Assembly: GCA_000002435.2 (NCBI GenBank)
Contig: CM018791.1
Length of the DNA: 64,000 nt
Origin: Giardia intestinalis
Lineage: Eukaryota
Strand: one strand, 5' to 3'
Shown here: one piece after another, positions 38,996-60,832 of the stretch
Position numbering within the stretch: position 1 is the first letter of the stretch
Layout of the letters: every line of letters starts with the position of its first letter
Program-made: the position numbers and the translations under genes
Notes under the pieces: model-generated
Database searches by the model: none
The model's input: only the letters and a program-made list of their open reading frames with translations
Told to the model about the DNA's origin: nothing

Positions 38996-40384
38996 ATGCA
39001 GTGGCCTTCACCAAGCACTTTGTATACCGGCCCCATCCTGGCACCAATGGTGCGAGCAAGCTTTCCAGGGATTCGTGCGCTTGCAGCAGCACTGGGTGCA
39101 TCGGCCGTTTACACCGGTGCAATCGTCGGAGACAGCCTCAGAGATGTTGTCACAGAGGTGGATCTGAGCAACATGATTGCCAAGATATCCACGACACGCC
39201 GGTCTGCGGGATCCCCATCGTGTGTGATCATTTCTGTTCCCATTCAGGCCACAGAGACGCCGGGGCAGTTCGAACCGGCAATACCACTGGTTGTGCAGCT
39301 GACCGTCAACGAATATGACGATGTCGATAAGATTTGTAGCATCCTTGCACCATGGTGTGTGGGGATAGACCTGAATCTAGGCTGTGGGGCCCAATTTGCT
39401 GTGTCAGGTGGAAGGGGACAGCGTCTTGTAGACAAAGCAGAGAATGTTATAGCGCGATTCTTAAAGGCGTTGCAGCAGATCGAGGATAGTGGTGGAAGAC
39501 GCATAAGCTTTTCGATAAAGCAGCGGCTTTTGGGTTCTGTCGAAGAAACTGTCAATAAGATGTGTGCATTTTACAAGCTTGGGGTCAATTGCATTGCAGT
39601 ACACATGCGCAGAAAGGGCGAAGAGCGAGGCTGCACACACGCAGATTGGGGCTCCTTCTTTCAAGTGTTATCCGGATTATATACTTGGTTTTGGACGGTC
39701 TTTTGTCAAGGTGATCTCCAGCTCTTTGAAGATGCTCTTAGAACATTTCACGTAGTTGCGAACGGAGACCTGTTTTCGCGGGAGACCATCACTGACTTCT
39801 TCTCCCTCTCTGAGCAGTACTTTTCGCAATTACCCACAGATATACAGCCGTACTTATCCAGTCGATATGGACGCCTGACTCCAGTGATGCTGGCTCGAGG
39901 AGCCATATCTGACTTAAGCCTCTTCTCCTTTATACTTGAGCAGAGAGGAGAATCAGCTAAGAAGGCAGATGCCTCCGTTCCTGCACATATCTCTGAGGTG
40001 CTTTCTTTGTTGCAGCCAACCAACGAGCCCCTCTGCTACCTCAATCAAGCAAAGGCGCTTCTGCAAGTGTCTGAAGCCACAAGTTCCCACTTCAACAACT
40101 ACAAGTACACAGTCCTCAACGGCATAGCTTTTGTCAGAAGCCATGAAATTTACAAGTCTAATACTCAACGCCTTGCATACAAATACTTCAACCAAGAACT
40201 GCAAACACCAAAAACATACGGGGAGTATCGCACCCTGTTGAACAGATTGTCATCGAAACCATATTCCTATTGGGCTACATTATTACAAGAACAGACAAGA
40301 CCGTCTACGGAGAAAGAATGCTATCAGCCTCCTGCTCCTTCGCTGACGGCGCCTGAACAGGAGGAACGGAATCACAAATGTTAG
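38996..40384 (+). CDS. DUS: tRNA-dihydrouridine synthase (Dus family)
   Basis: The N-terminal ILAPMVRASFPGIRALAAALGASAVYTGAIV matches the Dus LAPM(V/A) motif and TIM-barrel start. ATG verified, with the AT-rich aaataaATG directly upstream. Confidence 0.6.
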   Translation: MQWPSPSTLYTGPILAPMVRASFPGIRALAAALGASAVYTGAIVGDSLRDVVTEVDLSNMIAKISTTRRSAGSPSCVIISVPIQATETPGQFEPAIPLVVQLTVNEYDDVDKICSILAPWCVGIDLNLGCGAQFAVSGGRGQRLVDKAENVIARFLKALQQIEDSGGRRISFSIKQRLLGSVEETVNKMCAFYKLGVNCIAVHMRRKGEERGCTHADWGSFFQVLSGLYTWFWTVFCQGDLQLFEDALRTFHVVANGDLFSRETITDFFSLSEQYFSQLPTDIQPYLSSRYGRLTPVMLARGAISDLSLFSFILEQRGESAKKADASVPAHISEVLSLLQPTNEPLCYLNQAKALLQVSEATSSHFNNYKYTVLNGIAFVRSHEIYKSNTQRLAYKYFNQELQTPKTYGEYRTLLNRLSSKPYSYWATLLQEQTRPSTEKECYQPPAPSLTAPEQEERNHKC

Positions 40385-43300
40385 AGCTACGATTGGTTGG
40401 ATCACAGACAGGGATGCCATCAAAGAATGTTCCCTCCTTTCCAACAGATTTAGCATACTCCCGCACCAGCGCGTCGCTGTACATGTCAGAAAACTTCCCT
40501 GTCAACACAGGATATGTGCGCTTGAACTGCTCTACGCTGTCCATGTCAATGAGAATCTTCAAGATGTTAGCAGACGAAGGAAGTGCATAACGCACATAGG
40601 TAGGAGAAGAAACAAGATAGTCGAAAACGTCACCAGAGCCGTTTTTCACTGCAACCATGAAGGCGTAATCGTTCATGCCGCCCTCAACACGGCTTTTCAC
40701 CTCCAACTCAAAGAGCTCCTTGTTACTAGAGCCTGTCTCCCCCGCCGCCTCCATAATGAGCTTGACAACTCCAATGCAGTTCATAGCACACGCCATGAGA
40801 AAAGCGGTCATTCCGAGATACTTATCACCTGGCATTCGCTGCGCCACGTTTTGCTGCAAGGACACGCCAAGCTCAACGCGGACAGTAAAAAGCTTCTTCA
40901 TGAAATCGAGGTACGTGAAGATAGATGTGTCACTAGCCGGTAAAGACGAGCAGCGCTCTACTAAGCGCATAAAGCATGTATAACCGCGCTTATCCCTGAG
41001 TCCTAAGTCCTGCTTCTGTCCCGGGGAGTTGAGCCTCTTTACACTCTCGTTATACAGCAGATTAAACATATCTATCTTTCCGCTCATTGCTGCGGTCATC
41101 AAGCACGACTCGCCCTGGTGCATACACCCAAGGAACTCCAGGTTATTCTGAGCCCCCTGAATGTCATCTTTGACTATAGCATTATGGAGTTTGTGCTCCG
41201 GAAAGTCCTCGTACTGAGCAAGGATATCTTCTATGCCACGGTAGTTTTGCTTCATCGCGAGGACACGGGCATTGTCGTTGTGCTTGTTCAGCATCCCCTT
41301 CTCATGGGGAGCGAGTAGCTTGACACCGTCAATGTAATTATTGGTTGCAGCTATCATTAGCGCCGTCTGGTGCTGATCGTCATATACCCGAACACCATGC
41401 CCCAGTTCGACAAGGACCTCAACCACGCGCGTCACCTTTAATTTTGTCGCGAACTGCAGGTGTGTTAGGCCAAGGACAGTGTGTGCCCGTGAAGGAATGT
41501 TGTTAGCTAAGTGCATTATAATGGTGTTAGTGAACGGAATCTCAGTGACCGGCTTCATATCAACCTTTGTCTTTAGATCTGCTAGGATCTTCTCTATGGA
41601 CAGGTCATCCGTTTCCAAGTTCAGATCACCTCCAGTACCCCCGACAGGCTTTTCGGTGTCATCCTTCTTAGAGACAATAGGCTGGCTTCCGAGGACGTAA
41701 GTATCTCCGATTTGACTCAGATACTTGATGGCGGCAATAAGGCAGTCGTCGTCGAACTTATCATTGATTCTCCGTTCGAGAGGAGCCAGCTCAGCAACTA
41801 TCGACTCTCGGCCCATCCGAGCCGCGACTAGGAGAGCAGTAACACCGCTGTTGCTACTACGCATGCCCGCCTCATATGGTATGAGGATGCGCGCTATGTC
41901 TGTTTGGTTCCGGTATATGCTTATCATGAGCGCTGTGTAGTAGTCTGCCTCTTGCTTAATCTCTGGAAGAGTCATATAGTACAGCTCCCTGGACTCGTAT
42001 GGGGCCAAGATGCGTACGACGTCGACCGCATCTACCTCAACAGCGTGCATGAGTGCCGTATACTTGCAACACTCACATATCTTTCCAATCTGTCGCTTGA
42101 ATTTGGATTTGACGTTGATGCTGGGAGAGCCTGGCCCCATGGTTGACGGCGCAGAGTCATCTCCTGGTACTATAGAGGAGGACGAGGGATGTGGAAGCGA
42201 CGTGCCCGGCATATCGAGCCGCTTCACAACGCGCAAGTTCGTCTCGTGAAGCATAGACTCCACATTTGGGACCACGAACGCACTATCCTTGAAGATCTTG
42301 GACTTCTTGATCTCTTTGGCAATTTTCCTGCGCTGAAGGTCTGCATTGTCACTTGTCTTGATTATCTCCTCGCAAGTAGCGGAGCTACTATTGATTGCCG
42401 CCAGCATGAGTGGCGTATGCGTCATGCGCTTGCCTGTCTCACCATACTCAGAGAGTATGTCGATGCAATTGGCACTGCCGACCTCGCAAGCAACCTCATA
42501 CGGAGTTAGCCCCTTGCGGTTCTTGATGTCGAACTCCTCTGGGGCCAGTAGTTTGCAAGCCCCAACACTATTCGCTCGCACAGCGTAGTGAAGGGCCGTG
42601 TTTCCTTCATCGTCACAAGCACGAAGTAGCAGATTGCGCGTGTCCTTGTTGTATAGAAGAATCTCTATAATTTGGCGGTTATTACTAGCTGCAGCGACCA
42701 TCAGAGCTGTTGCATTCATTGGCTTCAGGCGTGCCTTGAGTTCTGAAAGCACCTGAGGCTTGAAGATCGCATACGATCCACAAACAACCTCATCCATTAT
42801 CTTAACACGGTTGAGCATGCACGCTATGAGTAGCCCAGAGGCGCCCATACTTGAAACAAGGCCTGCTTCCGCTTCAAACAGCTGCATAAAGCAATCGTAC
42901 TGGTTGAGCTCTGCGGCCAGCATGAGCGCAGAAAAGCCGATATGACTGAAGAAGGCCTGAAACTGCGTAGCCGGTTGTGTGTCAGAGTACGTTCGCAGCA
43001 TGATCTTTGCCGACGTCGTCTTGGCCTTACTCAGAAGGGTGAGTGTCTCATTGATGATTCCCTCAACCCCTTTCAGCGTTGTCTGCATTCCTGGAGTGGA
43101 GTTGATTTTTGCCTGCAGAGAGCGGCATCCGTCACCGATGGCAATGATTTTCTGAATGGCCTGCTTTGAAAAGCCCAGAGAGACAGACGCGTCTGTATCG
43201 GTCCCAATAAAAGCCGAGATGTATGCCATGCAAGTAGAGATTATATGCTTAACCTTTGTCTGGTCCTCATTCGAGATGGTAGCATCACTCTGGAATGCAG

Positions 43301-45860
43301 CAAGGCACATGTCCTTGATCTTCCCCAGGTTGTTCTGGATAGAGAAGAAGAGGTCCTTAACAGAAACCTCCTGATTTGCGGGGGTATCTCCCAGACCAGA
43401 CTTTGACAAGGTATCAAAGCCGGAGAATGTGGGCTCAAAGCCCTGAAGATTTGAAAATGAGCGTGATCGCATAGCAAGGGCCGAAGTATTTATGCCGAGA
43501 GTGGATCCCACTGCACTGGTCGCAGCGTCGAAGTTGACTTTAGAATCCACGCGCCGAAAGTCTGAAGCTCCGCCGTTATGAGAGGCGTGTCTGCTGTGGC
43601 CAGCAGAAGAGATAGGGCTCTTCATCGTGGAGGCATCGCTGTTGGCCTCCATCAAGGCACTAGCGGTGAAGATCTTCTCGGCATTTTTGATAGCCTGGGC
43701 CGTCTTCGCCTCAATTTCCTTTGCAACCTTCTTCTGCTGCTCTCTCATAGACGTAGCGAAGTTCTTGTAATTATTTTTGGCAGTAAGTGTGGCATCCTTC
43801 ACCTCTTTTGCACGCAGGGCCTTCATGGTCATCTTCTTGTTAGCAAACTCATTATTGACGGTGGCGTCGTTAGTAGATGAGTACTTATGCAGCCAGACAT
43901 CTTCGGGTGTAATAAAGACATTGTCGCCTTCACCACCCAGCATCTCCTGGCAGAAGGACATGTCAGAACTGTATTCTATTTCATTGAAAAGATCGTGTAG
44001 CTCTCCGGTGGCCTGAAGCCCGCATTCAGTTTCTTTAAGCTCGCACACGTAATCTGTATAGCCACGGGCAACTGCATACATCAATGCGGTTGCTCCAGAT
44101 GCAGAGTAGAGCCCGCCCTCGCCACCAGGAGCCTGCTTAAGGATTTTCTCTTTAACGGTTGCAGGAATCTGTAGCGATGTTATATATTTCTGCTTCCGGT
44201 TACGATTCAGATAAGGCGAGGACAGAAGACGGACAACATCGAGGTTTGAAGTGCGGGTGTTGATTCCTGTTGTCTCTAGCTCCTTCCCTGTTATCACCGT
44301 CCCCACAGGTAGAGACGGTGTCGGCGAATCGACAGTGCTGACCGTAGCAGGTTGCTCCTGAGTACCACATAGCCCAGGCTTTGTGGTGGCAACGGATCCT
44401 GCTGAACCTGCCGAAGAAGCTGCAGTTTTATAGTACGTCATTGCTAGCGGTGACATAACAGCTAGCATGAGTGCAGAGTAGCCCTTCTGGGTCTGAATAC
44501 ACATTTCCCTGCTACTAACGATTGTGTTCGTTATCCTAAGGTCTCCTTGGACGGCTGCGTACATGAGAGCCGTGAAGCCATTGATATCAAGGTGGCCCAG
44601 CTCGCGGATCAGCAACTCCTTGGCTATGAGAGGATAATGGAGGCGGGCGGCAAGGATAAGCGACGACTCCTTGTTCGAATTGGTCATCTGTGTCTCAAAG
44701 GTGGAAAGAATCTTGACTGCGATGAGGTTGTTGGCCACTACGGCACAGTAAAGTGCGCAGGAGAGCGTCGGATGCGCGGAGGACATGCCTACTTCCTTGA
44801 CCATCAGTTGACGCATGCAAGATATGTAGTTCATAACATAGTGAAGCGGATGCTTATCATAGGTCGTCACTGGCGCGGGGGTCTGATGTCTGGGGGAAAG
44901 TATTGACTGGACAGATTGCATGGCAATGGTCGAAGAGGAGGGATCGCCTACAAGGAAGGTGGTAGTGATAGGATTGGGGCTGATGACGCTAGAGGACGTA
45001 AAGCCTCCCGGCGTAGACGCTGCTGTCGGGGACATAACTGTGGAGGATGTCGGGTTCTGCCCTGTTATATCTGCAAGGATTGTGGAGGCCAACGCCTCAG
45101 TCGTTTGCTCTGGCGCAGAGGCAAACGGCTTGTAGCTCTGGTAGCTAGGCATCAGTTTAGTGAAATCGTCCGGATGACAGTTCAAGAGATCGTTCAAATC
45201 CAACTTATTAAACTGATCTGTACCTCCAAAGCAGTGCATGATGCGGGTCATGGCGATGACGGTGACCATCAGAGCAGACACCCGGTTGGCATCGTTCGTA
45301 CAGAGGCACGCCTCATAGGGAAGCAGCAGGTCCAAAATCTCGCAGTGTCCAAGGGCCGCGGCATGCATGAGAGCTGTCATGCTGTTCTGATACGCACCTA
45401 GTTCCTTCTCTGCATCAGATCTCTCCAGATATCCCTCCTTTAGGTTGTCACAAAAGTCTTTCACGTATATGTAAGAATTGTTCTTCACAGCAAGGATAAG
45501 GGCGGTGTTGCCAAAGCTGTCTTTGAGGCCCATTTCCCCTGCAAGGGGGCGAATACATATACCTTGGTTGGCAATCGCTGCATGCATTAGTGCGGTACGC
45601 CTGTAAGGCCCTGTCTGAAGGCCGAGTTCCTGGATAATTTTCAACGACGACGCGTTCTGATTCTGTGCCTTGACAATCCCGTTTACCGCATGAGCTTTTC
45701 CGTTGGCAGCAGCGATCTGGAGGGCGGTCATGTGATTTACCGGGTCGATACACCCGGTCATCGAAATGTACTTTTTAAGGATGTCTCCGTTATTCTGCAT
45801 CACAGCTGCCATCAAGGGGGTCTGAGCGACCTTGTTTTCAGGACTTGTAGTATCTGCCAT
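40305..45860 (-). CDS. very large ankyrin-repeat protein (Protein 21.1-type), 1851 aa
   Basis: ATG verified (cat at 45858-45860). It has dozens of ankyrin repeats (TALMHAA, TALMISIYRNQTDIARILIPYEAG, ...) separated by low-complexity linkers. Its last 80 nt overlap the 3' end of the Dus CDS on the opposite strand. Confidence 0.8.
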   Translation of the reverse strand: MADTTSPENKVAQTPLMAAVMQNNGDILKKYISMTGCIDPVNHMTALQIAAANGKAHAVNGIVKAQNQNASSLKIIQELGLQTGPYRRTALMHAAIANQGICIRPLAGEMGLKDSFGNTALILAVKNNSYIYVKDFCDNLKEGYLERSDAEKELGAYQNSMTALMHAAALGHCEILDLLLPYEACLCTNDANRVSALMVTVIAMTRIMHCFGGTDQFNKLDLNDLLNCHPDDFTKLMPSYQSYKPFASAPEQTTEALASTILADITGQNPTSSTVMSPTAASTPGGFTSSSVISPNPITTTFLVGDPSSSTIAMQSVQSILSPRHQTPAPVTTYDKHPLHYVMNYISCMRQLMVKEVGMSSAHPTLSCALYCAVVANNLIAVKILSTFETQMTNSNKESSLILAARLHYPLIAKELLIRELGHLDINGFTALMYAAVQGDLRITNTIVSSREMCIQTQKGYSALMLAVMSPLAMTYYKTAASSAGSAGSVATTKPGLCGTQEQPATVSTVDSPTPSLPVGTVITGKELETTGINTRTSNLDVVRLLSSPYLNRNRKQKYITSLQIPATVKEKILKQAPGGEGGLYSASGATALMYAVARGYTDYVCELKETECGLQATGELHDLFNEIEYSSDMSFCQEMLGGEGDNVFITPEDVWLHKYSSTNDATVNNEFANKKMTMKALRAKEVKDATLTAKNNYKNFATSMREQQKKVAKEIEAKTAQAIKNAEKIFTASALMEANSDASTMKSPISSAGHSRHASHNGGASDFRRVDSKVNFDAATSAVGSTLGINTSALAMRSRSFSNLQGFEPTFSGFDTLSKSGLGDTPANQEVSVKDLFFSIQNNLGKIKDMCLAAFQSDATISNEDQTKVKHIISTCMAYISAFIGTDTDASVSLGFSKQAIQKIIAIGDGCRSLQAKINSTPGMQTTLKGVEGIINETLTLLSKAKTTSAKIMLRTYSDTQPATQFQAFFSHIGFSALMLAAELNQYDCFMQLFEAEAGLVSSMGASGLLIACMLNRVKIMDEVVCGSYAIFKPQVLSELKARLKPMNATALMVAAASNNRQIIEILLYNKDTRNLLLRACDDEGNTALHYAVRANSVGACKLLAPEEFDIKNRKGLTPYEVACEVGSANCIDILSEYGETGKRMTHTPLMLAAINSSSATCEEIIKTSDNADLQRRKIAKEIKKSKIFKDSAFVVPNVESMLHETNLRVVKRLDMPGTSLPHPSSSSIVPGDDSAPSTMGPGSPSINVKSKFKRQIGKICECCKYTALMHAVEVDAVDVVRILAPYESRELYYMTLPEIKQEADYYTALMISIYRNQTDIARILIPYEAGMRSSNSGVTALLVAARMGRESIVAELAPLERRINDKFDDDCLIAAIKYLSQIGDTYVLGSQPIVSKKDDTEKPVGGTGGDLNLETDDLSIEKILADLKTKVDMKPVTEIPFTNTIIMHLANNIPSRAHTVLGLTHLQFATKLKVTRVVEVLVELGHGVRVYDDQHQTALMIAATNNYIDGVKLLAPHEKGMLNKHNDNARVLAMKQNYRGIEDILAQYEDFPEHKLHNAIVKDDIQGAQNNLEFLGCMHQGESCLMTAAMSGKIDMFNLLYNESVKRLNSPGQKQDLGLRDKRGYTCFMRLVERCSSLPASDTSIFTYLDFMKKLFTVRVELGVSLQQNVAQRMPGDKYLGMTAFLMACAMNCIGVVKLIMEAAGETGSSNKELFELEVKSRVEGGMNDYAFMVAVKNGSGDVFDYLVSSPTYVRYALPSSANILKILIDMDSVEQFKRTYPVLTGKFSDMYSDALVREYAKSVGKEGTFFDGIPVCDPTNRSSNICDSVPPVQAPSAKEQEADSILSP

Positions 45861-46003: not shown

Positions 46004-46010
46004 ATTTACT
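46004..46010 (-). promoter_or_regulatory. AGTAAAT polyadenylation-signal match overlapping the TAA stop of the 464-aa gene
   Basis: The + strand reads atttact. On the minus strand this is AG-TAA-AT with TAA (46008..46006) as the stop codon. That is an exact AGTRAAY match in the position where the diplomonad poly(A) signal frequently overlaps the stop. Confidence 0.4.
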
Positions 46011-47400
46011 GAGCAGATGGAGTGACTGCTAGAAATGCAAGTACTCCAGGGGTTCTCCTCTCATGTATCTTTGTTCTGATTGTTGCTAAAAAGACCACAG
46101 ATAAAACATGCTTGCCCGTGTCAACAGACACACCGCCGATTCTGCTATGCTTACCCGACGGGTTGCAGGTTTCTGCTGTCGCGGCTTCGTATGCAGCACA
46201 GAAGCTTTTAACCAGTCCAGAACTTAGTGGCCTGGGAGTAGATACTCCGATGCTTAACTTTGTTAGCAGATCTGTCAAGTTTTTGGACTCGACACCTACT
46301 GTGTCCACTCCGCCGTCCACAAAGCCGATCGGAACGCAGAGTTCCATCTTTACTGGTTGCTCATCTGCAGTATCCGCAGTACCTCCATAATACCACTCCA
46401 GAAGAGCGTGAAGGCCAGTATCTGTGGGGTCTAGTTCTCTGGCAATACTCATCCCCAAGTAGAGCAAATGTGCAGAGAAATTGATCGTGGTGTATCGTAC
46501 GGACAGCATAAGGACTTCCTTCTCCCATACTGTGTGCTCTGTCGAATCGGTATCAGCACACACTGGCTGCACTACCATGCTCAAGCCATCCGGTTTAAGT
46601 TGTGATAGAAATGCATCCGCAGACCCCAGATAAACGTGCTTTGGCGTAAGAGTAATGTGCGACAGTAAGTTGAGGAGCACTGTGTCCGCTCCACTACGGC
46701 TGCAGAGGAGAGCGATCTGCATGCAGAGAAGAAAAAGCGGAGCATCCGCAAACATGGACAGGTTTGCCTGCTTGTAGTCATCCCGCAGCTTATCATACTG
46801 ATGGAGGGGCAGTGTACGAAGAAGAGAGAGTACTCGGCGGGGCGAGGTCTGACAGAAGTCAAGGATTTCCTGAACAGGGCAGACATCCATGACGACCCCC
46901 AGCTCAATGTAGCTTCGCAACACGATTCGTAGGTGCAAAAGCTGACCGCGGGTTGCCCTGCAAATCACATCCCTGAAATTGAGTAAGCACAAGATACGGG
47001 CGGTGAATTGCAGCTGAACGTGTCGTACTCGCGCTATCTCCTGCTCCAGGTAGTCTGCCAAGTAGTTATGACCTCCCTTCTGGTACTGCATATCAATAAT
47101 ACCAAGCAGTTTAGAACTAAACAGATAGTTTTCCTCGTACTCTAGGAAGTTCAAGAAGTGCCCCTGATACTCTGCTGTCTGCGATGTGAAGTCCTTCATG
47201 TTGTCTATTTCATCTTTAGCTAAGATTATGTACTTAATTAGATCCCTGGTATACGATTCGCCCAATTCTGTGTCTCTAGTACTAAGGGTACCTGTCTGCG
47301 CCCGCTCACTAAGCTCGAGGATTTTATTTAAGACTGATATTAAGGCATCAAAAGTGTACTCAAGCTTCTCGAGCTTTCTAATGATCTGCTGCTCCGACAT
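46006..47400 (-). CDS. hypothetical protein, 464 aa
   Basis: ATG verified. It is mostly helical, and no motif recognised. Confidence 0.65.
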   Translation of the reverse strand: MSEQQIIRKLEKLEYTFDALISVLNKILELSERAQTGTLSTRDTELGESYTRDLIKYIILAKDEIDNMKDFTSQTAEYQGHFLNFLEYEENYLFSSKLLGIIDMQYQKGGHNYLADYLEQEIARVRHVQLQFTARILCLLNFRDVICRATRGQLLHLRIVLRSYIELGVVMDVCPVQEILDFCQTSPRRVLSLLRTLPLHQYDKLRDDYKQANLSMFADAPLFLLCMQIALLCSRSGADTVLLNLLSHITLTPKHVYLGSADAFLSQLKPDGLSMVVQPVCADTDSTEHTVWEKEVLMLSVRYTTINFSAHLLYLGMSIARELDPTDTGLHALLEWYYGGTADTADEQPVKMELCVPIGFVDGGVDTVGVESKNLTDLLTKLSIGVSTPRPLSSGLVKSFCAAYEAATAETCNPSGKHSRIGGVSVDTGKHVLSVVFLATIRTKIHERRTPGVLAFLAVTPSAQ

Positions 47401-47770
47401 ACCCCTGATGCTCCGTCACCGTCTTCCTTTCGCCGGCAATTGGTTATAAGTTTATTTTTTAACGACAGATCATGTGGACAATTGGAGTGTCTAAAGACGT
47501 CTGCGCTATCTGAGGCATACGGGGTGGCTAGGGCCACTTGTTCTTAAAGCAATGTGATGTTAGATTAACTTATCTATAAAAATCATACCACCGGGTACTA
47601 TTCGTCTTTTCGACTGTTTTGGCGTTCTTTGTTGTCAGCCGATATCAACTAAAAGCCTCACTAAATCACCGTACCCTCCGCGCACCTTCACATAAGATCT
47701 CAATCTTGCTCCCTCTTCTGCTCTGCACAAGAGAGTAAGTATTTTACTAGTCGTATTTTAACAATTGTAT

Positions 47771-47798
47771 TTGCTCAGATTGCTCAGATGTTGCTGAG
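47771..47798 (+). repeat. short direct repeats TTGCTCAGA TTGCTCAGA TG TTGCTGAG, 20-50 bp upstream of the first tandem-paralog ATG
   Basis: Read directly in the 419-bp spacer. Confidence 0.6.
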
Positions 47799-47819
47799 TT
47801 TTGAGACTGTCACGCTACC

Positions 47820-48167
47820 ATGAACTCGAATTCTAAAAACAAAACAATGTCATGCTGTGGAAATCGGGACGTGGCCCCTGCAATAGCTCCTTTGAGTGAG
47901 GATTTCTTTAGTAGGAGCGTGGAGCTAATCTTGCCAGGGCACAGTTCCGATATACGTCTAGTTTATGAGAATGATCAATGGCAAAACGCTGGCATAGAAA
48001 AAAGTGTGGAGTACAAAAGTCTTCTAGAGCGATGTAAAGTCCTCGAGCGAGAGAAGAAGGAGCTAAAGGCGAAGTATGACGAGGCTCTGCGAAAGCTCGC
48101 CATTCTATCTCTCGAGCATGAAAAGCTTCAAAACGCCACAGAAATACACGTTAAGAAGAACATATGA
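47820..48167 (+). CDS. small coiled-coil protein with N-terminal MSCCG cysteine cluster (tandem paralog A); 115 aa from first ATG, 106 aa from second ATG at 47847
   Basis: ATG verified. The protein reads ...MSCCGNRDVAPAIAP...IRLVYENDQWQN...KSLLERCKVLEREKKELKAKYDEALRKL.... It is clearly similar to the next ORF. Confidence 0.55.
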   Translation: MNSNSKNKTMSCCGNRDVAPAIAPLSEDFFSRSVELILPGHSSDIRLVYENDQWQNAGIEKSVEYKSLLERCKVLEREKKELKAKYDEALRKLAILSLEHEKLQNATEIHVKKNI

Positions 48168-48182
48168 GAACACTAGTGCTAT

Positions 48183-48677
48183 ATGGCCTGTGCTCTTGAC
48201 GTTAGCACAGGTTCAGCGTATGGGATACGTAAATTTTGTAGTGAATTTTACAGTGAATTTTGCAGTGAATCTTGGGTCATGTCGTGCGCATGTAGACAGC
48301 AGCCTGTGGAGACGTGCGGGTATTCCACGGACATCTGGAGCATGACTCCGCAACTGAAGCTTTCTACTGCATCTGGTCCGGTGGAGATCACCTATGAAGA
48401 TGGCGTCTGGAGCTGCAATAACGCTGCAGACACAGACATCCAGAAGCTTCACGACAGCGCCACTAAACTTGAGCATCAGAAAAAGCACCTTGAAGACAAA
48501 TTACGATCCATTGAGGAGGAGTGTCGCAAGAAAGAGCGTGCCATTGAGCTAATCCTGGGCTCGAATAAGTGCACAACTGTGCCCCGCAGGAAGACACCCG
48601 TGTTTACTGCTGTACCTGGGGGTTATTCTGAAAAGACTCTGTTTTCGGAAGTCAGGAGCTCTGCAACACTTTTGTAG
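48183..48677 (+). CDS. small coiled-coil protein with MSCACRQQ cysteine cluster (tandem paralog B); 164 aa from first ATG, about 132 aa from internal ATG at 48279
   Basis: It is in the same frame as paralog A, separated from it by two stops. The shared blocks are MSC(C/A)C, then (I/L)x(L/I)xYE(N/D)(D/G)xW, then a heptad coiled coil (LEHQKKHLEDKLRSIEEECRKKERAIEL). The 5' 96 nt of the annotated ORF contain a 12-mer tandem repeat, so they may be 5' leader rather than coding. Confidence 0.55.
   Translation: MACALDVSTGSAYGIRKFCSEFYSEFCSESWVMSCACRQQPVETCGYSTDIWSMTPQLKLSTASGPVEITYEDGVWSCNNAADTDIQKLHDSATKLEHQKKHLEDKLRSIEEECRKKERAIELILGSNKCTTVPRRKTPVFTAVPGGYSEKTLFSEVRSSATLL
48238..48273 (+). repeat. 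12-bp tandem repeat x3 (GTAGTGAATTTT ACAGTGAATTTT GCAGTGAATCTT)
   Basis: Read directly. It lies just upstream of the internal ATG (48279) of paralog B. Confidence 0.85.
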
Positions 48678-48709
48678 ACAAACATAAGATCTAACCAGTT
48701 GAGTGTCTC

Positions 48710-50719
48710 TTAACACCCATTGGTCATGGATTTGACAGTATGACCTTGTTCTCTATCTAGTTTTGATCCTCGCAGGACAGAGGTGATGTAACCTATGTCC
48801 TCCGTGTTTAGAGCATCAGGGCCCATTCTTTCTACAAGCAGAAGCACACAGTTTTTAAGCTCGATAAGCGCATCCTCTTGCTCCGAAACCCTCCGCACAA
48901 GATTTTTGACTGGCTGGGCTTCCGGCAACATATCCAAAAGCATGGAGTAAAGCTCTGCCCTGAGTTGGTTGTTGGCAGTGGAATTTTTGGTTAGTAGATC
49001 ATTGATCGATATGGGGCCAGACGTATTGAAGCCTATAGTCCCCTCACTGAGCTGCATCGACGTGGTTGCTTTTGGCGCAGCAGCTGTGTGCGAGTGCTGC
49101 AAATCAGACCTACGCAATAGTGACCTAGTCATTGAACACTGAGACGCATGCCTACTCTCTAATACTTCCTGCGGCTTTGTGGCGGCCTGACGGGAGGGGC
49201 TGTAGGTGATCTGCGGCGTCGAGCGGTCAGCCTTGACAACTGCAGACATCGGCCGTGTGGACCTGCCCGACACCGTGGACTCGTCAACAGTGTAACTGTG
49301 ATCATGATAGGCGCTATCCACAAGGGAGGACTGCACCACGGTCGGGCTTCCTATACAGCGCTTCGCCGTGTCTGGCCTGCTGCTGGAGCCATTGAGGCCG
49401 AATGCTAGGCTGCTTGAAGTTAAGGGGCTTCTCACAGACTTGGAACTTGCTTCAGCAGCCAGCTTGGTGATATTTCTGTGAGTCCTTTCACTAAAGACGG
49501 TGGTGTTGCTCTCTACCAGAATTAGTTCCTTGAACAGTTTGGTGAAAAGCTCAAAGGATCTTGGGGTTTCTCTGAGCACTTTACTGCACTGAAACCAGTT
49601 GTCAACGTGTTCTTTATCGGCATTCGCACTAGCATTCTCAACAACGTTAAGTTTTGCGAACACATTGACGCATAGACTAGTGAAGAATTTGCGACTGTTC
49701 TTTGTCCCACTAATTGGACTGGAGATGGTTCTTGTACGTTCTACAAATACCTCTCTGATCGCACTCACAGAGGGAAGAAGATCTTCTTTGTATTCTGAGT
49801 ATATCCCGAGGCAGTCGAAGGCTTTGTTCATGACTGAGGGAAGAGGGCCCATGGCATCTGACAGAGTAATTTGGGAATCTGCCTTTTCTCCGTGTAAGAG
49901 AAGCTTAACACGTTGCAATGAGCTGCAGAGAAGGAGAAAGGCTCGAAACTCTTCCAAACACATCCTTATTTGTGGCGTGTCGGCATACAGGAGATCTATA
50001 TACAATGTTATAGATTCTAGAGTGCTGGTGACGAACAGGAGGAAGACGAATAACGAGGGGAGAGTCTCTAACAAAAACTTCGCATATATCTCGCAGACCA
50101 TCTCTTTATCACTCGTACCATATGCATTTGCAAGGATCAAATTATTTATGAAGATATTGGGGACATACTGAATTTCCTTCAGCAAGTACGGAGCTTCAGA
50201 TGAAGCCAGAGCCTTAAAGAACCTGCTCTCCTCACCCATACCCGACTCATATGCAATTCCCTTGATGCTCAGGTGCGTGCACCCAGGCATCAAAGCGCGT
50301 ATCAAGGCCTCAAATGAGCTCTCGGCCCCTTGCTTGATGGCTAAATTGGTCAGGTTAAGTGTATGCAGTGTGGGATTTGTAACGATCTTCCGTTCAATGT
50401 TTAACTTTTCGGCAGACGAGCCAACGCCAGCGGCATCTACAAAGCTAAAGCTAGAGATGCTAAGTGTCGTAAATTCGCAAACCGACGTTAAGAGCTGAAT
50501 CAGCAAGCCTATAGCGGAGATGGATACATCCATGCACTCGCTTAATACTATGTGCTTTGTGGTGCTCATCGTGGGCACAGAAGCTTTCAGTGCCTGGGAA
50601 ACAGCAATAGCCCCTCTGGACCCGTGCAGCAGATCGTGCAGCAATGGGGTTGCATCAACAACCTTCTCGTTACAGCGCAAGGCTGTGGCAACGTGGGATC
50701 CTTTGCTAGGAGACGCCAT
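48710..50719 (-). CDS. hypothetical protein with leucine-rich-repeat/RNI-like N-terminal region, 669 aa
   Basis: ATG verified. It has LxxLxLxxN-like periodicity (LHTLNLTNLAIKQG...). Confidence 0.65.
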   Translation of the reverse strand: MASPSKGSHVATALRCNEKVVDATPLLHDLLHGSRGAIAVSQALKASVPTMSTTKHIVLSECMDVSISAIGLLIQLLTSVCEFTTLSISSFSFVDAAGVGSSAEKLNIERKIVTNPTLHTLNLTNLAIKQGAESSFEALIRALMPGCTHLSIKGIAYESGMGEESRFFKALASSEAPYLLKEIQYVPNIFINNLILANAYGTSDKEMVCEIYAKFLLETLPSLFVFLLFVTSTLESITLYIDLLYADTPQIRMCLEEFRAFLLLCSSLQRVKLLLHGEKADSQITLSDAMGPLPSVMNKAFDCLGIYSEYKEDLLPSVSAIREVFVERTRTISSPISGTKNSRKFFTSLCVNVFAKLNVVENASANADKEHVDNWFQCSKVLRETPRSFELFTKLFKELILVESNTTVFSERTHRNITKLAAEASSKSVRSPLTSSSLAFGLNGSSSRPDTAKRCIGSPTVVQSSLVDSAYHDHSYTVDESTVSGRSTRPMSAVVKADRSTPQITYSPSRQAATKPQEVLESRHASQCSMTRSLLRRSDLQHSHTAAAPKATTSMQLSEGTIGFNTSGPISINDLLTKNSTANNQLRAELYSMLLDMLPEAQPVKNLVRRVSEQEDALIELKNCVLLLVERMGPDALNTEDIGYITSVLRGSKLDREQGHTVKSMTNGC

Positions 50720-56316: not shown

Positions 56317-58158
56317 TCACGGTGGAAATGGATTGGGTCGGGCCTTAAATTGCTCAAACACAGGCCTCGCTATACATTTTTCATGCCGTTTGGAAGCAGA
56401 GATGGACCTGGGCCGAGTCCCAGATGCCAACGGATAAATGCTTTCAATGGTATTTGTGGAACTGACTCGGGCACTTTTGCTAAAGCGCCGTGTCTGAGGA
56501 CTGTCATAGGTTTTCAAGCTAGCTGTTTTGGCGCTACTTGATCTACAAGCATGTACACTTTGGGGGTGGTCATGAGCCTTCAACCGTGCCTGTATTCTAT
56601 GTCCTAATGCATGTATTTGGTTAATGTCGGACTCCATCGCGTCCAGAGCTTTATCAGTTTCTCCGCGTAGGATCCATAGCTTATTGAGAGCCGACTTTTT
56701 GGCTGAGATTGCCTGGCAGAGAAGCCTTATTTCTTCGCCGCGCTCCCACGTTCTGTTGGGATCCTCCTTGGCAATTTTAAGCACCTCATCCAAGTGCTGC
56801 TGAAAGCTGCGGAGCTCTGCTTCAGTACTGGTGATTAAGTCTGCTATCATTGGTATTTGCTTACGATGAATAATATGTAGTTTGTTGCTCTGATTACCTG
56901 TGCTCTGCTTTTTCCGCATGCGTGACGAACTCTTTCGAACGCTTCTTCTGCCTGAAGACTTGCGTGACGACGCCCGAGAGGACCCACTGCTGGAGGGAAT
57001 GCTAGTGTTTGGACTTGATAGTAGCCTATGAGTCTGTGGAGGGTTCTCAGAGATGCTGGAAATTGGGGTGCCTTTAACCGTTGTTTCTTTATCAGGTATG
57101 TAAGACGTTGAGGTGAAGCCGTTGGGATAACGTGTAGCTTTTGCTATATTCATCTGTGTTTGTTTGCTTGGAGTTTTAATGGAAGCAACTCTTAAAGCTG
57201 CGCCTGGAGAACTTTGCAAGAAGACGCTATGTGATGTAGGCTCTCCATGTACTTGTTGAAAAGAATCAGATGTCCTTGTTAGGTCTATACTCTGCACTGG
57301 ATCATCTAATTTTACCACGTTCTTGTGCTTGAGCTTTGTAATAGGCTGGACATCAGTAGTGCTGTCGACTGTGTACGCTATCGCAGACGTATCTACACTA
57401 GGTCCAGTAACAGATGTGCTATCAAGCTCGTTGTGAGACGAAAGCGGAGACTGAAATTCGTCATATGCTATTTCGTGGACGATGTTTGCTAGAGTGACAC
57501 AGCTTTTCCGTGTTTTGTCAAGGTCTTCTTGCATGGATCTGAGTTCTTCTGTCAACGACTCAGAAGTCATGGTCTTCTGATCAAGACGTGCTAATAGAGC
57601 ATCATATTTTCTCTGAAGATCTAAAAGTTGCATTCGCGTCTCACCCTCAGTTGTAATTCCCTGTCTACCCAATGTGCTACTGTCGTCCATTGGCCTCAGA
57701 AAGTTAGATGGTGTTGGCGTAGACGTGCTGGGATGTAACTGGTCCTGTTGTGTTGTAAATGCCTTGTGGGCCTTGTTGACACTCTCTTTATCAAAGACTT
57801 CCGAACGCTTTTCTCGCAGCATAGATAAGCCAGTTGGTATAGACCCCAAACCACTGAACTGCTTACCTCTGGAGGGATCTGTGCGTACACACCATGAAGC
57901 GGTAGGAGAGGGCGTCAGTAACGGATGGACTGAAGCTTGTGGAGGCGGTGCAGAGGATGGAAGGGCACTAGATAGCGACGCGCTGCTGGGATAATCATTG
58001 GACGATGCGGTAGCAAGACTTGGGGTTTTAATGCTTGAGGAAGGAGGACTGTGTAGTGCAGTGAATGTGCCTGGAGAAGTGAATGGAAAGGTAGGGTGTA
58101 CAGGTGGTGGGCAGTATGAGGCCAGACGCAGAGCCTCAGAGAAAGATGGTCCTTGCAT
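56317..58158 (-). CDS. hypothetical S/P-rich, coiled-coil protein, 613 aa
   Basis: ATG verified. The N-terminus is Ser/Pro-rich low complexity. It has two coiled-coil blocks and a basic serine-rich segment (SSRKSSGRRSVRKSSSRMRKKQS). Confidence 0.6.
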   Translation of the reverse strand: MQGPSFSEALRLASYCPPPVHPTFPFTSPGTFTALHSPPSSSIKTPSLATASSNDYPSSASLSSALPSSAPPPQASVHPLLTPSPTASWCVRTDPSRGKQFSGLGSIPTGLSMLREKRSEVFDKESVNKAHKAFTTQQDQLHPSTSTPTPSNFLRPMDDSSTLGRQGITTEGETRMQLLDLQRKYDALLARLDQKTMTSESLTEELRSMQEDLDKTRKSCVTLANIVHEIAYDEFQSPLSSHNELDSTSVTGPSVDTSAIAYTVDSTTDVQPITKLKHKNVVKLDDPVQSIDLTRTSDSFQQVHGEPTSHSVFLQSSPGAALRVASIKTPSKQTQMNIAKATRYPNGFTSTSYIPDKETTVKGTPISSISENPPQTHRLLSSPNTSIPSSSGSSRASSRKSSGRRSVRKSSSRMRKKQSTGNQSNKLHIIHRKQIPMIADLITSTEAELRSFQQHLDEVLKIAKEDPNRTWERGEEIRLLCQAISAKKSALNKLWILRGETDKALDAMESDINQIHALGHRIQARLKAHDHPQSVHACRSSSAKTASLKTYDSPQTRRFSKSARVSSTNTIESIYPLASGTRPRSISASKRHEKCIARPVFEQFKARPNPFPP

Positions 58159-58228
58159 TTATGGTTTGATTGTAAAGATTGCAAAAAATCGACGGAAGCC
58201 AGTAGCACTAACTAGCGGTCGTACAATT

Positions 58229-60832
58229 ATGTCTAAAGCAGCTACTGCGCCGTCGGTTTCGGAAGATAAGAGCATAGTGCAGCATTCTACCTTCAGAGCG
58301 TCCCCCTTTCATAAGCGACAACGTAGAGAAAGCATTCTAACTATGTTAGCAATACTATATATGGATGCTGGTAAAATCTTGTTATACCTTCTTCTCAAGA
58401 TACTCCAGAGCATCCTCTCTTTTTGGTACATGTCTACCCTGTCAATCACAATTAATGCATACGCAATTGCATCTCAAAATACCGGATTTTATAGATTGAC
58501 GCGGCGGCATATACATCAGGAATATTTTAAAACATTTGAGGAGGGCTACCGTGCTGGGTTCTCATGGTTAGTGTATCGCATGATTGACAGATTTCTAAAT
58601 CAAAAATCCCTAGCTGTCCATCTAAGCAATGAGGTCGTCGAGAACCCATTCGGTGACACAGTATGTGGCATGGAACACGCCCTAGTGTACATGTGTGTGC
58701 AGTTTTTCATCTTGTCGTTTTGGTCATTTTGTTACTCTATCTTGCAGGCGTATATTCAGCGTATATCGAACGTGATAAAGGACATTATCAACAATCGGAT
58801 TTACATATCCTTTCTTTCTGTCCTCCTAACTCGTCACCTTTCTCAGCCGTACCAACAGCTGGAGCAAGAGTCTTCAGGCGAGCGCGCATCCACCCTGAAC
58901 GAGTACTCTCAGACCATGGCGAATCTCATAACGGGTCTACTTGAGAAGGCCATTCCATCTGTCAGTTACTTCTTAATAATGCTAGTGACGACTCTTTTAA
59001 GAGAAAAGCCGTCCTTGAATAGCCTAAATGACGAGAAGACTAACGTAGCCAACAGAAAACCGAAAAGAAAGGATTCCAAAAAGCCTCAGTTTTCTTCTAT
59101 TGCCTCCACAATCCATGACAGACACGCCCTTGCACTAATACTTATTGCCCTGTTACCGGTTCCTTTTAACGTCTTTGTGGTTGCCTCCGTGGAGCGCCAA
59201 AGGTTTGCGCTCAGTTCTTCCCGCAACTCTGCTAAGATGCAGTCTGTTGCCCTGCTAACCGAAGTAACTTCGCGCTATAGGCTAATAAAGCTGTATGACG
59301 CTGTCTCCTATGAAATAAGTAATGTATGTAAGCTAATGCACAAGTTCAAAAGCGTTGACATTGTCAACATTCTTTTGAGAAGCACGTCTAGAAAGGTTAA
59401 GAGCCTCACTAAAAGGTACACGTCGTCGGTTCTAACCCTGGGATCGGCTATTTATTTATCGCTAAACATCCTAAGCTACAGGCAAATCCAGCAGATAAGA
59501 TACATAGTAAGCACAGTCACAACCCAGATAACAAAGTTATTAGAAATCCCTGGAGTAATAGTAGACATTCACGAGCACTTTGGTGTGATTATTAAGGAAC
59601 TATCGAAACCCCAAGAAGCGGGACTATCAAGTGATAACACTGTTGGGTTTGCGGCCACGTGTGCATACTTACAACAGCATTGGACGGATATTACTAGATC
59701 CTCTTGTAAAGCTGATTCTTCCTTCAGTTTGAAGGCTTGGACTAGGAGCTTCTTTAAGAGAGCAGCTTGCTACATCAATATCGGTATTATTAAAATCATT
59801 CCACCGGTGTTCCGTTACAAGTATCCAGCTAGTCTTGTGACCTCAACAAGTCCGGATATCAATGAAAGGATGTATGTGCAGGAGCTCATGGCTGAATCAC
59901 AACAGTACGTCACCTTGCAAGAGCCTTTCCCTTTAACTCGGCCCATTCAGCCATGTACTCCCACATCTATAGAATTCCGAGACGTCTGCTTTTCTTACAA
60001 AACGGGCTGTGATATTTTGCATGGCCTGACCCTGTCTGTTCATCCCGGCCAGAAGGTTGCTATCGTGGGGAGGTCTGGGATCGGCAAGTCCACGATCATC
60101 AACCTCTTGACGCGGCTATACACCACACCCCAGCCTCAGGACACTTCGTCGCCCGGAATCTATCTCAATGGCAGGGCTATAGGGTCCATCCCACGCGAGG
60201 AGCTACGGAGGCTTATAACAGTCGTCCCGCAGGATAACATACTCATCAGGGGCTCTGCCACGGACAACATCGCCTATGGACAGCCTCGCAAGCTCCCGGG
60301 CTCCCACGCAGAAGAGGAGCAGAGGCGCTACATCCGAGAAGTCATTCGGCTATGCTACGAGGCTTCCCGTGTCGCTGCGGCTGAAGAGCTCCTGGGAGAT
60401 GCACCATACAGTGGAACTCTGCAGGGCCTTTCTGGGGGACAACGCCAACGGGTAGGAATTGCCAGAGCTGTCGCACGTGGAGGCAGCGTTCTTGTGCTCG
60501 ACGAGGCGACGTCGGCACTCGACGAAGAGACAGAGAAGCGGGTCCTCCAACAGCTATTCCGCTCACTGGACCGCAACCAGAGCGTCGTCATTATCAGTCA
60601 CAGACTCTCCACTCTCAGGCATGTCGACCTGATTTATATTCTAGATAATCCAGATGGCAGTGGAGCGCGCGTGGTAGAGTCAGGCTCGTACGACTGGTTC
60701 GTTGCCGAAAGCCAATATCTGAAGGATGCAGGCCAGGATATCTCTGACCTTGTGAGTAACTGTGGCTGTAGCAGCGCAGGTGTTACCCCAGGCTTCTCCC
60801 ATGCAACTCTTGATGCAAAGGGGGATCTGTAG
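58229..60832 (+). CDS. ABC transporter, half-transporter type (TMD-NBD), about 867 aa
   Basis: Walker A is GRSGIGKST, the ABC signature is LSGGQRQRVGIARAV, and Walker B is VLVLDEATSALD. An N-terminal multi-helix membrane domain precedes them. The ORF-track start at 57998 would overlap the opposite-strand 613-aa gene, so I moved the start to the first ATG after that gene's start (58229, MSKAATAPS...). Confidence 0.85.
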   Translation: MSKAATAPSVSEDKSIVQHSTFRASPFHKRQRRESILTMLAILYMDAGKILLYLLLKILQSILSFWYMSTLSITINAYAIASQNTGFYRLTRRHIHQEYFKTFEEGYRAGFSWLVYRMIDRFLNQKSLAVHLSNEVVENPFGDTVCGMEHALVYMCVQFFILSFWSFCYSILQAYIQRISNVIKDIINNRIYISFLSVLLTRHLSQPYQQLEQESSGERASTLNEYSQTMANLITGLLEKAIPSVSYFLIMLVTTLLREKPSLNSLNDEKTNVANRKPKRKDSKKPQFSSIASTIHDRHALALILIALLPVPFNVFVVASVERQRFALSSSRNSAKMQSVALLTEVTSRYRLIKLYDAVSYEISNVCKLMHKFKSVDIVNILLRSTSRKVKSLTKRYTSSVLTLGSAIYLSLNILSYRQIQQIRYIVSTVTTQITKLLEIPGVIVDIHEHFGVIIKELSKPQEAGLSSDNTVGFAATCAYLQQHWTDITRSSCKADSSFSLKAWTRSFFKRAACYINIGIIKIIPPVFRYKYPASLVTSTSPDINERMYVQELMAESQQYVTLQEPFPLTRPIQPCTPTSIEFRDVCFSYKTGCDILHGLTLSVHPGQKVAIVGRSGIGKSTIINLLTRLYTTPQPQDTSSPGIYLNGRAIGSIPREELRRLITVVPQDNILIRGSATDNIAYGQPRKLPGSHAEEEQRRYIREVIRLCYEASRVAAAEELLGDAPYSGTLQGLSGGQRQRVGIARAVARGGSVLVLDEATSALDEETEKRVLQQLFRSLDRNQSVVIISHRLSTLRHVDLIYILDNPDGSGARVVESGSYDWFVAESQYLKDAGQDISDLVSNCGCSSAGVTPGFSHATLDAKGDL

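Follow-up and report, generated by a model that had tools for sequence, protein, structure and literature searches.

Ancient tandem paralogs in Giardia intestinalis with a conserved N-terminal cysteine head and a predicted leucine zipper

Within a 64,000-nucleotide stretch of the Giardia intestinalis genome (NCBI GenBank assembly GCA_000002435.2, contig CM018791.1; hereafter the window), two adjacent open reading frames (ORFs) between positions 47820 and 48677 correspond, by exact-sequence look-ups, to GL50803_7396 and GL50803_7397 of Giardia lamblia ATCC 50803 (WB), both of which are labelled "hypothetical protein". On comparison of their sequences and those of their orthologs, 7396 and 7397 are ancient tandem paralogs of a small gene that appears restricted to the Giardia lineage. 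The predicted layout shared by the two products consists of an M-S-C-(C or x-C) head, a disordered and variable linker of about 15–20 residues, a three-stranded β-meander and a zipper of about six heptads, and the cysteines of the head are putative sites of S-acylation. Both genes are already annotated with short starts but are uncharacterised: neither gene identifier appears in the main text of any paper in the literature searched, and no publication on 7396 or 7397 was found.

Tandem genes and their start codons

As described in a first-pass annotation made from the DNA letters, the two ORFs are co-oriented, share one reading frame and are parted by two stops, and each holds an in-frame internal ATG that precedes a cysteine-rich motif (SCCG after 47847 and SCAC after 48279). 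The features that define the pair are as follows.

47820-48167, + strand: ORF1, in the same frame as ORF2; stop TGA at 48165-48167
48183-48677, + strand: ORF2, in the same frame as ORF1; the second separating stop is TAG at 48174-48176
47847-48167, + strand: GL50803_7396 coding sequence, 106 amino acids plus stop; product starts MSCCG
48279-48677, + strand: GL50803_7397 coding sequence, 132 amino acids plus stop; product starts MSCAC
47820-47846, + strand: ORF1 upstream extension MNSNSKNKT, from the former annotated start; non-conserved and probably untranslated
47830-47846, + strand: A-rich initiator-like element ATTCTAAAAACAAAACA, abutting the 7396 start codon; putative initiator
48183-48278, + strand: ORF2 upstream extension of the old 164-amino-acid annotation; overlaps the 7396 3′ untranslated region (UTR) and a 12-bp repeat

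The suggestion that translation starts at the internal ATGs is borne out by conservation and by annotation. In a four-lineage DNA alignment, the onset of conservation falls exactly at 47847 and 48279. The current 2020 WB annotation likewise uses these ATGs as starts (XP_001710169.2, 106 amino acids; XP_001710170.2, 132 amino acids), as do the coordinates of a published RNA-seq study (PMC3610916). The A-rich run ATTCTAAAAACAAAACA ahead of 47847 is kept in four lineages, and its last 10 nt are 80% A+T; the context of 47820 is GC-rich, with no A/T-rich initiator before it. In isolate P15, the counterpart of the ORF1 extension ATG is a GTG followed by a stop, and in other lineages this extension is unalignable. 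The 32-codon extension of ORF2 shows neither an open frame nor conservation in other lineages, and in a fifth lineage a stop is found two codons upstream of the MSCVC start of the 7397 ortholog. Giardia 5′ UTRs are 1–14 nt long, and its ribosomes do not scan (PMC3610916). Taken together, conservation and annotation indicate that the internal ATGs are the real starts, as the reference annotation already has them.

Five G. intestinalis lineages (WB, P15 of assemblage E, an assemblage-B contig and two others) share the 7396-7397 pair in synteny and with the order unchanged, and in the window the two coding sequences are 111 bp apart on the + strand. Ratios of nonsynonymous to synonymous substitution (dN/dS) are 0.01–0.03 for 7396 and 0.06–0.16 for 7397, with synonymous sites saturated between lineages, and are those of genes under strong purifying selection. 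Between assemblages A and B, identity is 94% for 7396, 78% for the adjoining gene 7394 and 73% for 7397, the last being about the local norm. Strand-specific RNA-seq (PMC3610916 Table S1) gives 7396 values, in fragments per kilobase per million reads (FPKM), of 1244 in WB, 964 in AS175, 395 in P15 and 641 in GS; the corresponding values for 7397 are 42, 251, 46 and 22, and its expression is roughly 30-fold weaker. The caution that the ORFs would be dubious if they lacked transcript or peptide support is thus answered by published transcripts of both in WB. The two genes are real, functional and transcribed.

Common ancestry and predicted architecture

Paralogy was assessed by Smith–Waterman alignment against shuffled sequences and by hhalign profile–profile comparison of the two ortholog sets. 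A BLASTP comparison of the two products gives E = 0.54. The Smith–Waterman score of the full proteins lies well above shuffles (z = 7.05, Gumbel p ~6e-5), and the 52 N-terminal residues, which lie outside the coiled coil, align without gaps at z = 6.56, or z = 6.75 with the first five residues removed. The coiled-coil segment alone is not more similar than shuffles (z = 0.5). The two ortholog sets match in hhalign with 86.6% probability (E = 4.5e-6), collinearly over residues 1 to 75. The pairwise alignment proposed as a check in the first-pass annotation therefore beats its shuffled controls in both the full proteins and the N-terminal half, and the claim of a tandem duplication of a small gene is upheld by the N-terminal halves, by the profile comparison and by a distant homolog that matches both families (below). 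Of the shared motifs that had been pointed out, the cores LEREKKELKAK (7396) and LEHQKKHLEDK (7397) are found as claimed, and the YE(N/D)xxW block is present in both products (IRLVYENDQW and VEITYEDGVW), although the first residue of the block in ORF2 is V rather than I or L.

The combined family profile, searched against 1.84 billion representative proteins, retrieves only the two Giardia families, one protein from another source (P0040) and one spurious repeat protein. The last of these (P0041) was rejected as a family member, its match being confined to zipper positions 64-95. P0040 is 127 amino acids long, begins MSCGCGAG...IRLTLPTDSGLLELQYNEGDW and continues into a zipper; its profile-search E value is 7e-5 over 1.8e9 proteins, and its hhalign E values are 3.8e-10 against the 7396 family and 2.1e-7 against the 7397 family. 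It is encoded on two short Logan contigs of 68–69% G+C, from SRR14944320 (224-607) and SRR27143828 (1094-1477), which carry no second family member beside it. The gene upstream of it is orthologous to that for the ankyrin protein of the window (tblastx 6.6e-28), a case of partial synteny. The source genome has compact, intronless genes and may be that of an unsequenced Giardia-like diplomonad. P0040 is the only homolog found outside G. intestinalis: word-indexed searches with each product and then with a nine-sequence family profile matched only G. intestinalis orthologs, scans of JGI metagenomes with P0040 and with the 7396 family gave no confirmed match, and neither gene is present in the examined part of a G. 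muris ortholog table.

Ten positions are invariant in all nine aligned sequences, which comprise both paralogs and P0040: M1, C3, L27, L29, S33, Y40, W45, L59, L66 and K76. Judged from the distribution of the two families, the duplication is older than the divergence of the G. intestinalis assemblages and, as far as the short P0040 contigs show, may be younger than the separation from the GC-rich relative that carries P0040.

AlphaFold2 monomer models of both paralogs were built from one shared alignment, so that agreement between the two models is not independent evidence. The 7396 model has a mean predicted local distance difference test (pLDDT) score of 77 and comprises a low-confidence segment at residues 4-13 (pLDDT <50), a short helix at 18-22, strands at 25-29, 36-41 and 44-48, and a helix at 54-105. 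In the 7397 model (mean pLDDT 72), strands are placed at 25-30, 33-40 and 43-46 and a helix at 52-94; its tail is of low confidence, and before residue 25 no regular structure is seen except an isolated strand or bridge residue at position 11. These elements map to the DNA as listed here.

47853-47858, + strand: codons of 7396 Cys3 and Cys4, putative S-acylation sites; invariant in four lineages
47919-47990, + strand: 7396 predicted three-stranded β-meander, residues 25-48 VELILPGHSSDIRLVYENDQWQNA; AlphaFold2
48006-48161, + strand: 7396 coiled coil (leucine zipper), residues 54-105; AlphaFold2 helix pLDDT ~90
48285-48293, + strand: codons of 7397 Cys3-Ala4-Cys5, putative S-acylation sites; Cys3 invariant
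48351-48416, + strand: 7397 predicted β-meander, residues 25-46; AlphaFold2
48432-48560, + strand: 7397 coiled coil, residues 52-94; AlphaFold2 helix pLDDT 83-98
48561-48674, + strand: C-terminal tail found in 7397 only, with a conserved basic block KCT(T/A)VPR(R/K)KT..FT; low AlphaFold2 confidence

In agreement with the heptad coiled coil ascribed to both products in the first-pass annotation, the helices 54-105 and 52-94 each follow a single dominant register, with 67–92% of a and d positions hydrophobic and d mostly Leu. In 7396 the d positions of the one best register read L L L A L L H, and in 7397 83% of a/d positions are hydrophobic in one register. One alignment places an inter-paralog gap of exactly 7 residues, which preserves the heptad register. 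The last ~18 residues of the 7397 tail are absent in two lineages. Within the tail, VPR(R/K)KT (48579-48596, residues 101-106) is conserved and basic and resembles a PKA-type RRxT site.

No curated family (Pfam) or solved fold was matched beyond generic long helices. A Pfam scan of both products and four neighbours returned only sub-threshold coiled-coil matches for 7396 and 7397; Cep57_CLD_2 (PF14197), ERM_helical (PF20492) and Vps5 (PF09325), at 13–15 bits against gathering cut-offs of 27–40, were dismissed as compositional matches limited to the zipper. A sequence-profile search of the PDB likewise gave weak coiled-coil matches only.

The cysteine head and a proposed lipid anchor

The head had been described as a di- or tri-cysteine cluster. 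Conserved pairs are indeed present, C3 and C4 in 7396 and C3 and C5 in 7397, whereas the term "tri" fits only ORF2 of WB, where Cys13 is specific to that isolate. The heads of the family read MSCC, MACC, MSCAC, MSCVC, MSCGC and MSCAR. Cys3 is invariant in 10 of the 10 family sequences with an intact N-terminus and precedes a variable linker that carries indels; Cys5 of 7397 is retained by four of the five lineages, assemblage B having Arg in its place (MSCAR). These conserved cysteines fall among roughly the first five residues of each product. The low pLDDT at residues 4-13 suggests that the 7396 head is probably flexible. The Cys codons vary synonymously between lineages (TGC/TGT), and P0040, a homolog of 68% GC, encodes M-S-C-G-C with different codons, which argues that the constraint acts on the protein.

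Heads of this kind are familiar from other proteins. Cys3 and Cys4 of GAP-43 (MLCCMRR) and Cys3 and Cys5 of PSD-95 (MDCLCIV) are classic N-terminal palmitoylation sites, and their positions recur in MSCCGNR of 7396 and MSCACRQ of 7397, respectively. In all four proteins a flexible segment follows the motif and position 2 is not Gly, so that none would be myristoylated. In contrast, the disordered GAP-43, with its IQ motif, and PSD-95, with its PDZ, SH3 and GK domains, bear no relation in sequence or fold to 7396 and 7397, and acylation in the Giardia proteins is putative. SCG10 (stathmin-2) is also small, with a palmitoylated N-terminal targeting domain of two cysteines and then a long α-helix, a layout resembling that of 7396 and 7397; its cysteines, however, are residues 22 and 24, the helix is a monomeric tubulin binder rather than a zipper, and no homology was detected. 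Melanoregulin is a further small protein palmitoylated on an N-terminal Cys cluster; a weak profile match to its structure (PDB 6cmy; positions 17-109, E = 0.09) is not significant and was set aside. In Giardia itself, nine DHHC proteins are present, and S-palmitoylation is documented for VSPs, HCNCp and α19-giardin (PMC4109852). The last of these, a Giardia annexin that is both myristoylated and palmitoylated (cited in PMC4109852), is like the present pair Giardia-specific; it is N-terminally lipidated and associated with cytoskeleton and membrane, and shows that the organism uses N-terminal acylation. It differs in its annexin fold and its MG-C signal for both lipids, as 7396 and 7397 have neither Gly2 nor annexin repeats. 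7396 and 7397 would be a lineage-restricted case of a familiar kind, a putative N-terminal Cys-acylation head joined to a coiled coil, and S-acylation of Cys3/4/5 would be the likeliest role for the head.

The model proposed for the pair, which is assigned a probability of about 0.55, is as follows. Cys3 and Cys4 of 7396 and Cys3 and Cys5 of 7397 would be S-acylated by a Giardia DHHC acyltransferase. Formation of a parallel dimer by the zipper would then bring up to four acyl chains to one end and so pin the dimer to the cytosolic face of a membrane. The β-meander, lying beside the bilayer, would serve as a binding module, and the zipper would project away from the membrane. In this arrangement the two proteins would act as small lipid-anchored adaptors or tethers. 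The acylation, the parallel dimer, the membrane attachment and the adaptor role are each put forward as proposals.

Several points weigh against this model. The searches gave no direct sign that either protein is acylated, attached to membranes or dimeric; neither gene occurs in the searched supplement text of the DHHC/palmitoylation paper, no palmitoyl-proteome that includes either was found, and the literature searched holds no localisation data for either protein. The searched supplement text of an organelle proteome and of a three-strain proteome contains no peptide data for the two proteins, an absence that is weak evidence. The 7397 product of assemblage B has a single motif Cys (MSCAR), so dual acylation is not universal, and around the cysteines there is little basic or hydrophobic context beyond one Arg. 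The AlphaFold2 models are moderate (pLDDT 77 and 72), monomeric and drawn from shallow alignments of 8–10 sequences. Finally, neither gene has a mapped transcription start site; the exact start codons and the promoter role considered below for the repeat ahead of 7397 both rest on conservation.

Other explanations of the head were considered alongside S-acylation. The MSC motif could act in processing of the N-terminus or in protein stability, for example as an N-degron or acetylation context, or could set an initiation context at the RNA level, with the β-meander and zipper acting without an anchor. Near-absent 5′ UTRs put the first codons in the initiation region, where an RNA constraint is possible, and no membrane data were found; the retention of Cys through synonymous TGC/TGT changes, and of M-S-C-G-C in the differently encoded P0040, speaks against this account, which is unlikely but keeps an appreciable share of the probability. 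Less probable still are coiled-coil dimers, either soluble or bound to the cytoskeleton, whose cysteines carry no lipid and instead bind a metal (four thiols per parallel dimer, for zinc or an iron–sulfur centre) or form inter-chain disulfides. Each chain does carry two adjacent Cys at the same end of a predicted parallel zipper, and more conserved cysteines occupy heptad a positions (C63 of 7396 and C82 of 7397). However, the cytosol is reducing, a disordered, variable and indel-bearing linker is a poor scaffold for a metal site, assemblage-B 7397 retains only one of its two head cysteines, and cysteines at positions 3/4/5 behind Met-Ser are in keeping with known N-terminal acylation motifs.

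The remaining alternatives concern the genes themselves. If assemblage A made long isoforms from 47820 (115 amino acids) and 48183 (164 amino acids), the Cys cluster would be internal and could not be a lipidation head. In WB, and also in DHA2, an A2 isolate with annotated products of 115 and 164 amino acids, both extensions are open frames that begin with an ATG, and the want of a mapped transcription start site leaves room for them. Long isoforms are nevertheless quite improbable: in the other lineages examined the extensions are either missing or not open, 47820 is not preceded by an A/T-rich initiator, the ATG at 48183 falls within the 7396 3′ UTR upstream of the poly(A) site at 48255, and both the re-annotated reference and the RNA-seq study use the short forms. 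That the ORFs are not homologous at all, their likeness arising from coiled-coil composition and a chance MSC start, is hardly credible. The BLASTP value of 0.54 and the coiled-coil z of 0.5 speak for such an origin, but the N-terminal halves align gaplessly at z = 6.6 (6.75 without the first five residues), hhalign gives E = 4.5e-6, P0040 bridges both families, the predicted secondary-structure elements follow the same order in both, and five lineages have the genes side by side in the same orientation.

A more ambitious version of the S-acylation model is offered tentatively and is, taken whole, doubtful. It holds that the pair forms a dually S-acylated, Giardia-only family with a previously unseen β-meander-plus-zipper fold that acts as an abundant membrane-skeleton tether, for example from the plasma, flagellar or peripheral-vacuole membrane to the unusual cytoskeleton of Giardia. 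In it, 7396 would be the highly expressed, near-invariant core, and 7397, with its basic RRKT tail, a low-abundance regulated partner able to heterodimerise.

The intergenic repeat, the surrounding window and significance

The 12-bp tandem repeat ahead of 7397 is real, as had been reported, but its assignment to a putative 5′ leader of the second copy is not retained. Three AGTGAA hexamers, one per WB unit, begin at 48240, 48252 and 48264; AGUGAA occurs more often than any other poly(A) signal in Giardia (PMC3610916), and the 3′ end mapped for 7396 lies inside the repeat. The 1–14-nt length of Giardia 5′ UTRs also argues against a leader. The features concerned, with the mapped ends from the same study (PMC3610916 Table S1), are given below.

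48232-48274, + strand: 12-bp tandem repeat AATTTTGCAGTG, 3.6 copies, 87% matches
48168-48255, + strand: 7396 3′ UTR, 88 nt, to the mapped poly(A) site
WB: 7396 3′ UTR of 88 nt; poly(A) site 48255, 10 nt after the first AGTGAA and 24 nt before the 7397 ATG
P15: 7396 3′ UTR of 81 nt; poly(A) site 6 nt before the 7397 ATG
GS (assemblage B): 7396 3′ UTR of 83 nt; poly(A) site 4 nt before the 7397 ATG

Signals of the AGURAA class are expected within about 40 nt upstream of a mapped site, and the AGTGAA at 48240-48245 stands in this relation to the site at 48255. At the same spot in P15 and assemblage B an AGTAAA lies 4–8 nt before the published sites, and across isolates the poly(A) site is 4–10 nt downstream of a conserved AGTRAA. 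The AGTGAA signals, together with the poly(A) site, identify the repeat as the end of the 7396 transcript. Roughly 70 nt beyond the stop codon of 7396, AAATTTTATAGTAAATT is present in every lineage, with one AGTAAA there in lineages other than assemblage A; assemblage A has two extra units (+24 bp), at the same copy number in eight independent contigs. The repeat is thus an assemblage-A expansion, a triplication, of a conserved AGTRAA element. By position, the repeat would also fall in the A/T-rich core-promoter region of 7397, so that one conserved AGTRAA element would both end the abundant 7396 mRNA and lie in the core-promoter region of the weaker gene. Over the whole window AGTGAA is depleted (27 occurrences vs 43.4 expected; 100 of 100 shuffles held at least 27).

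Expression of 7397 is about sixfold higher in the A2 isolate AS175 (251) than in WB (42), and that of 7396 is alike in both (964 vs 1244). Repeat copy number is alike in all assemblage-A contigs examined and therefore does not explain this difference. Upstream of the repeat, the 7396 3′ UTR holds a perfect 8-bp inverted repeat, CCTGTGCT ... AGCACAGG (48187-48194 / 48204-48211), with a 9-nt loop; it is 7 bp in P15 and absent from other lineages. A hairpin at 48187-48211 was rejected as not significant (fold z = -1.48).

The window is ~47–50% G+C and is densely filled, on either strand, by long ORFs that lack introns and are parted by very short spacers. The neighbouring genes are the following.

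40305-45860, - strand: ankyrin-repeat protein of Protein 21.1 type, 1851 amino acids (Pfam scan)
46006-47400, - strand: GL50803_7394
48710-50719, - strand: GL50803_17312

The divergent intergenic region between 7394 and 7396 (47401-47846), at 446 bp, is unusually long for Giardia and is 67% identical between WB and P15. It includes a 9-bp tandem repeat, TTGCTCAGA, of 2.1 copies (47771-47789) that is absent in P15. An Rfam scan of 47300-48800 gave no match at E <= 1. Tail-to-tail transcript overlaps are commonly reported in Giardia. The published 7397 3′ UTR (48678-48962) is 285 nt in WB and AS175 and 281 nt in P15, and at 285 nt the transcript extends ~250 nt antisense into the tail-to-tail 3′ end of GL50803_17312. 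Elsewhere in the window, ends of opposite-strand ORFs overlap at 40305-40384, between 38996-40384 (+) and 40305-45860 (-), and at 57998-58158, between 56317-58158 (-) and 57998-60832 (+, TTG start); the latter overlap probably reflects an over-extended TTG start call.

About half of Giardia genes are "hypothetical", and most of the canonical actin-binding proteins and linkers between membrane and cytoskeleton are, to our knowledge, missing from the organism. A small orphan that is as highly transcribed as 7396 (FPKM ~1244) and is 94% identical between assemblages A and B is a reasonable candidate for a parasite-specific structural or trafficking role. The locus also offers a compact case in which one A/T-rich AGTRAA element, triplicated in a single lineage, apparently acts as terminator of one gene and as promoter region of the gene that follows. 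The finding is modest and leaves current understanding in place. Two genes that were annotated but unstudied now make up a defined family whose proposed mechanism can be tested, and the Cys head opens that mechanism to a cheap and direct experimental test.

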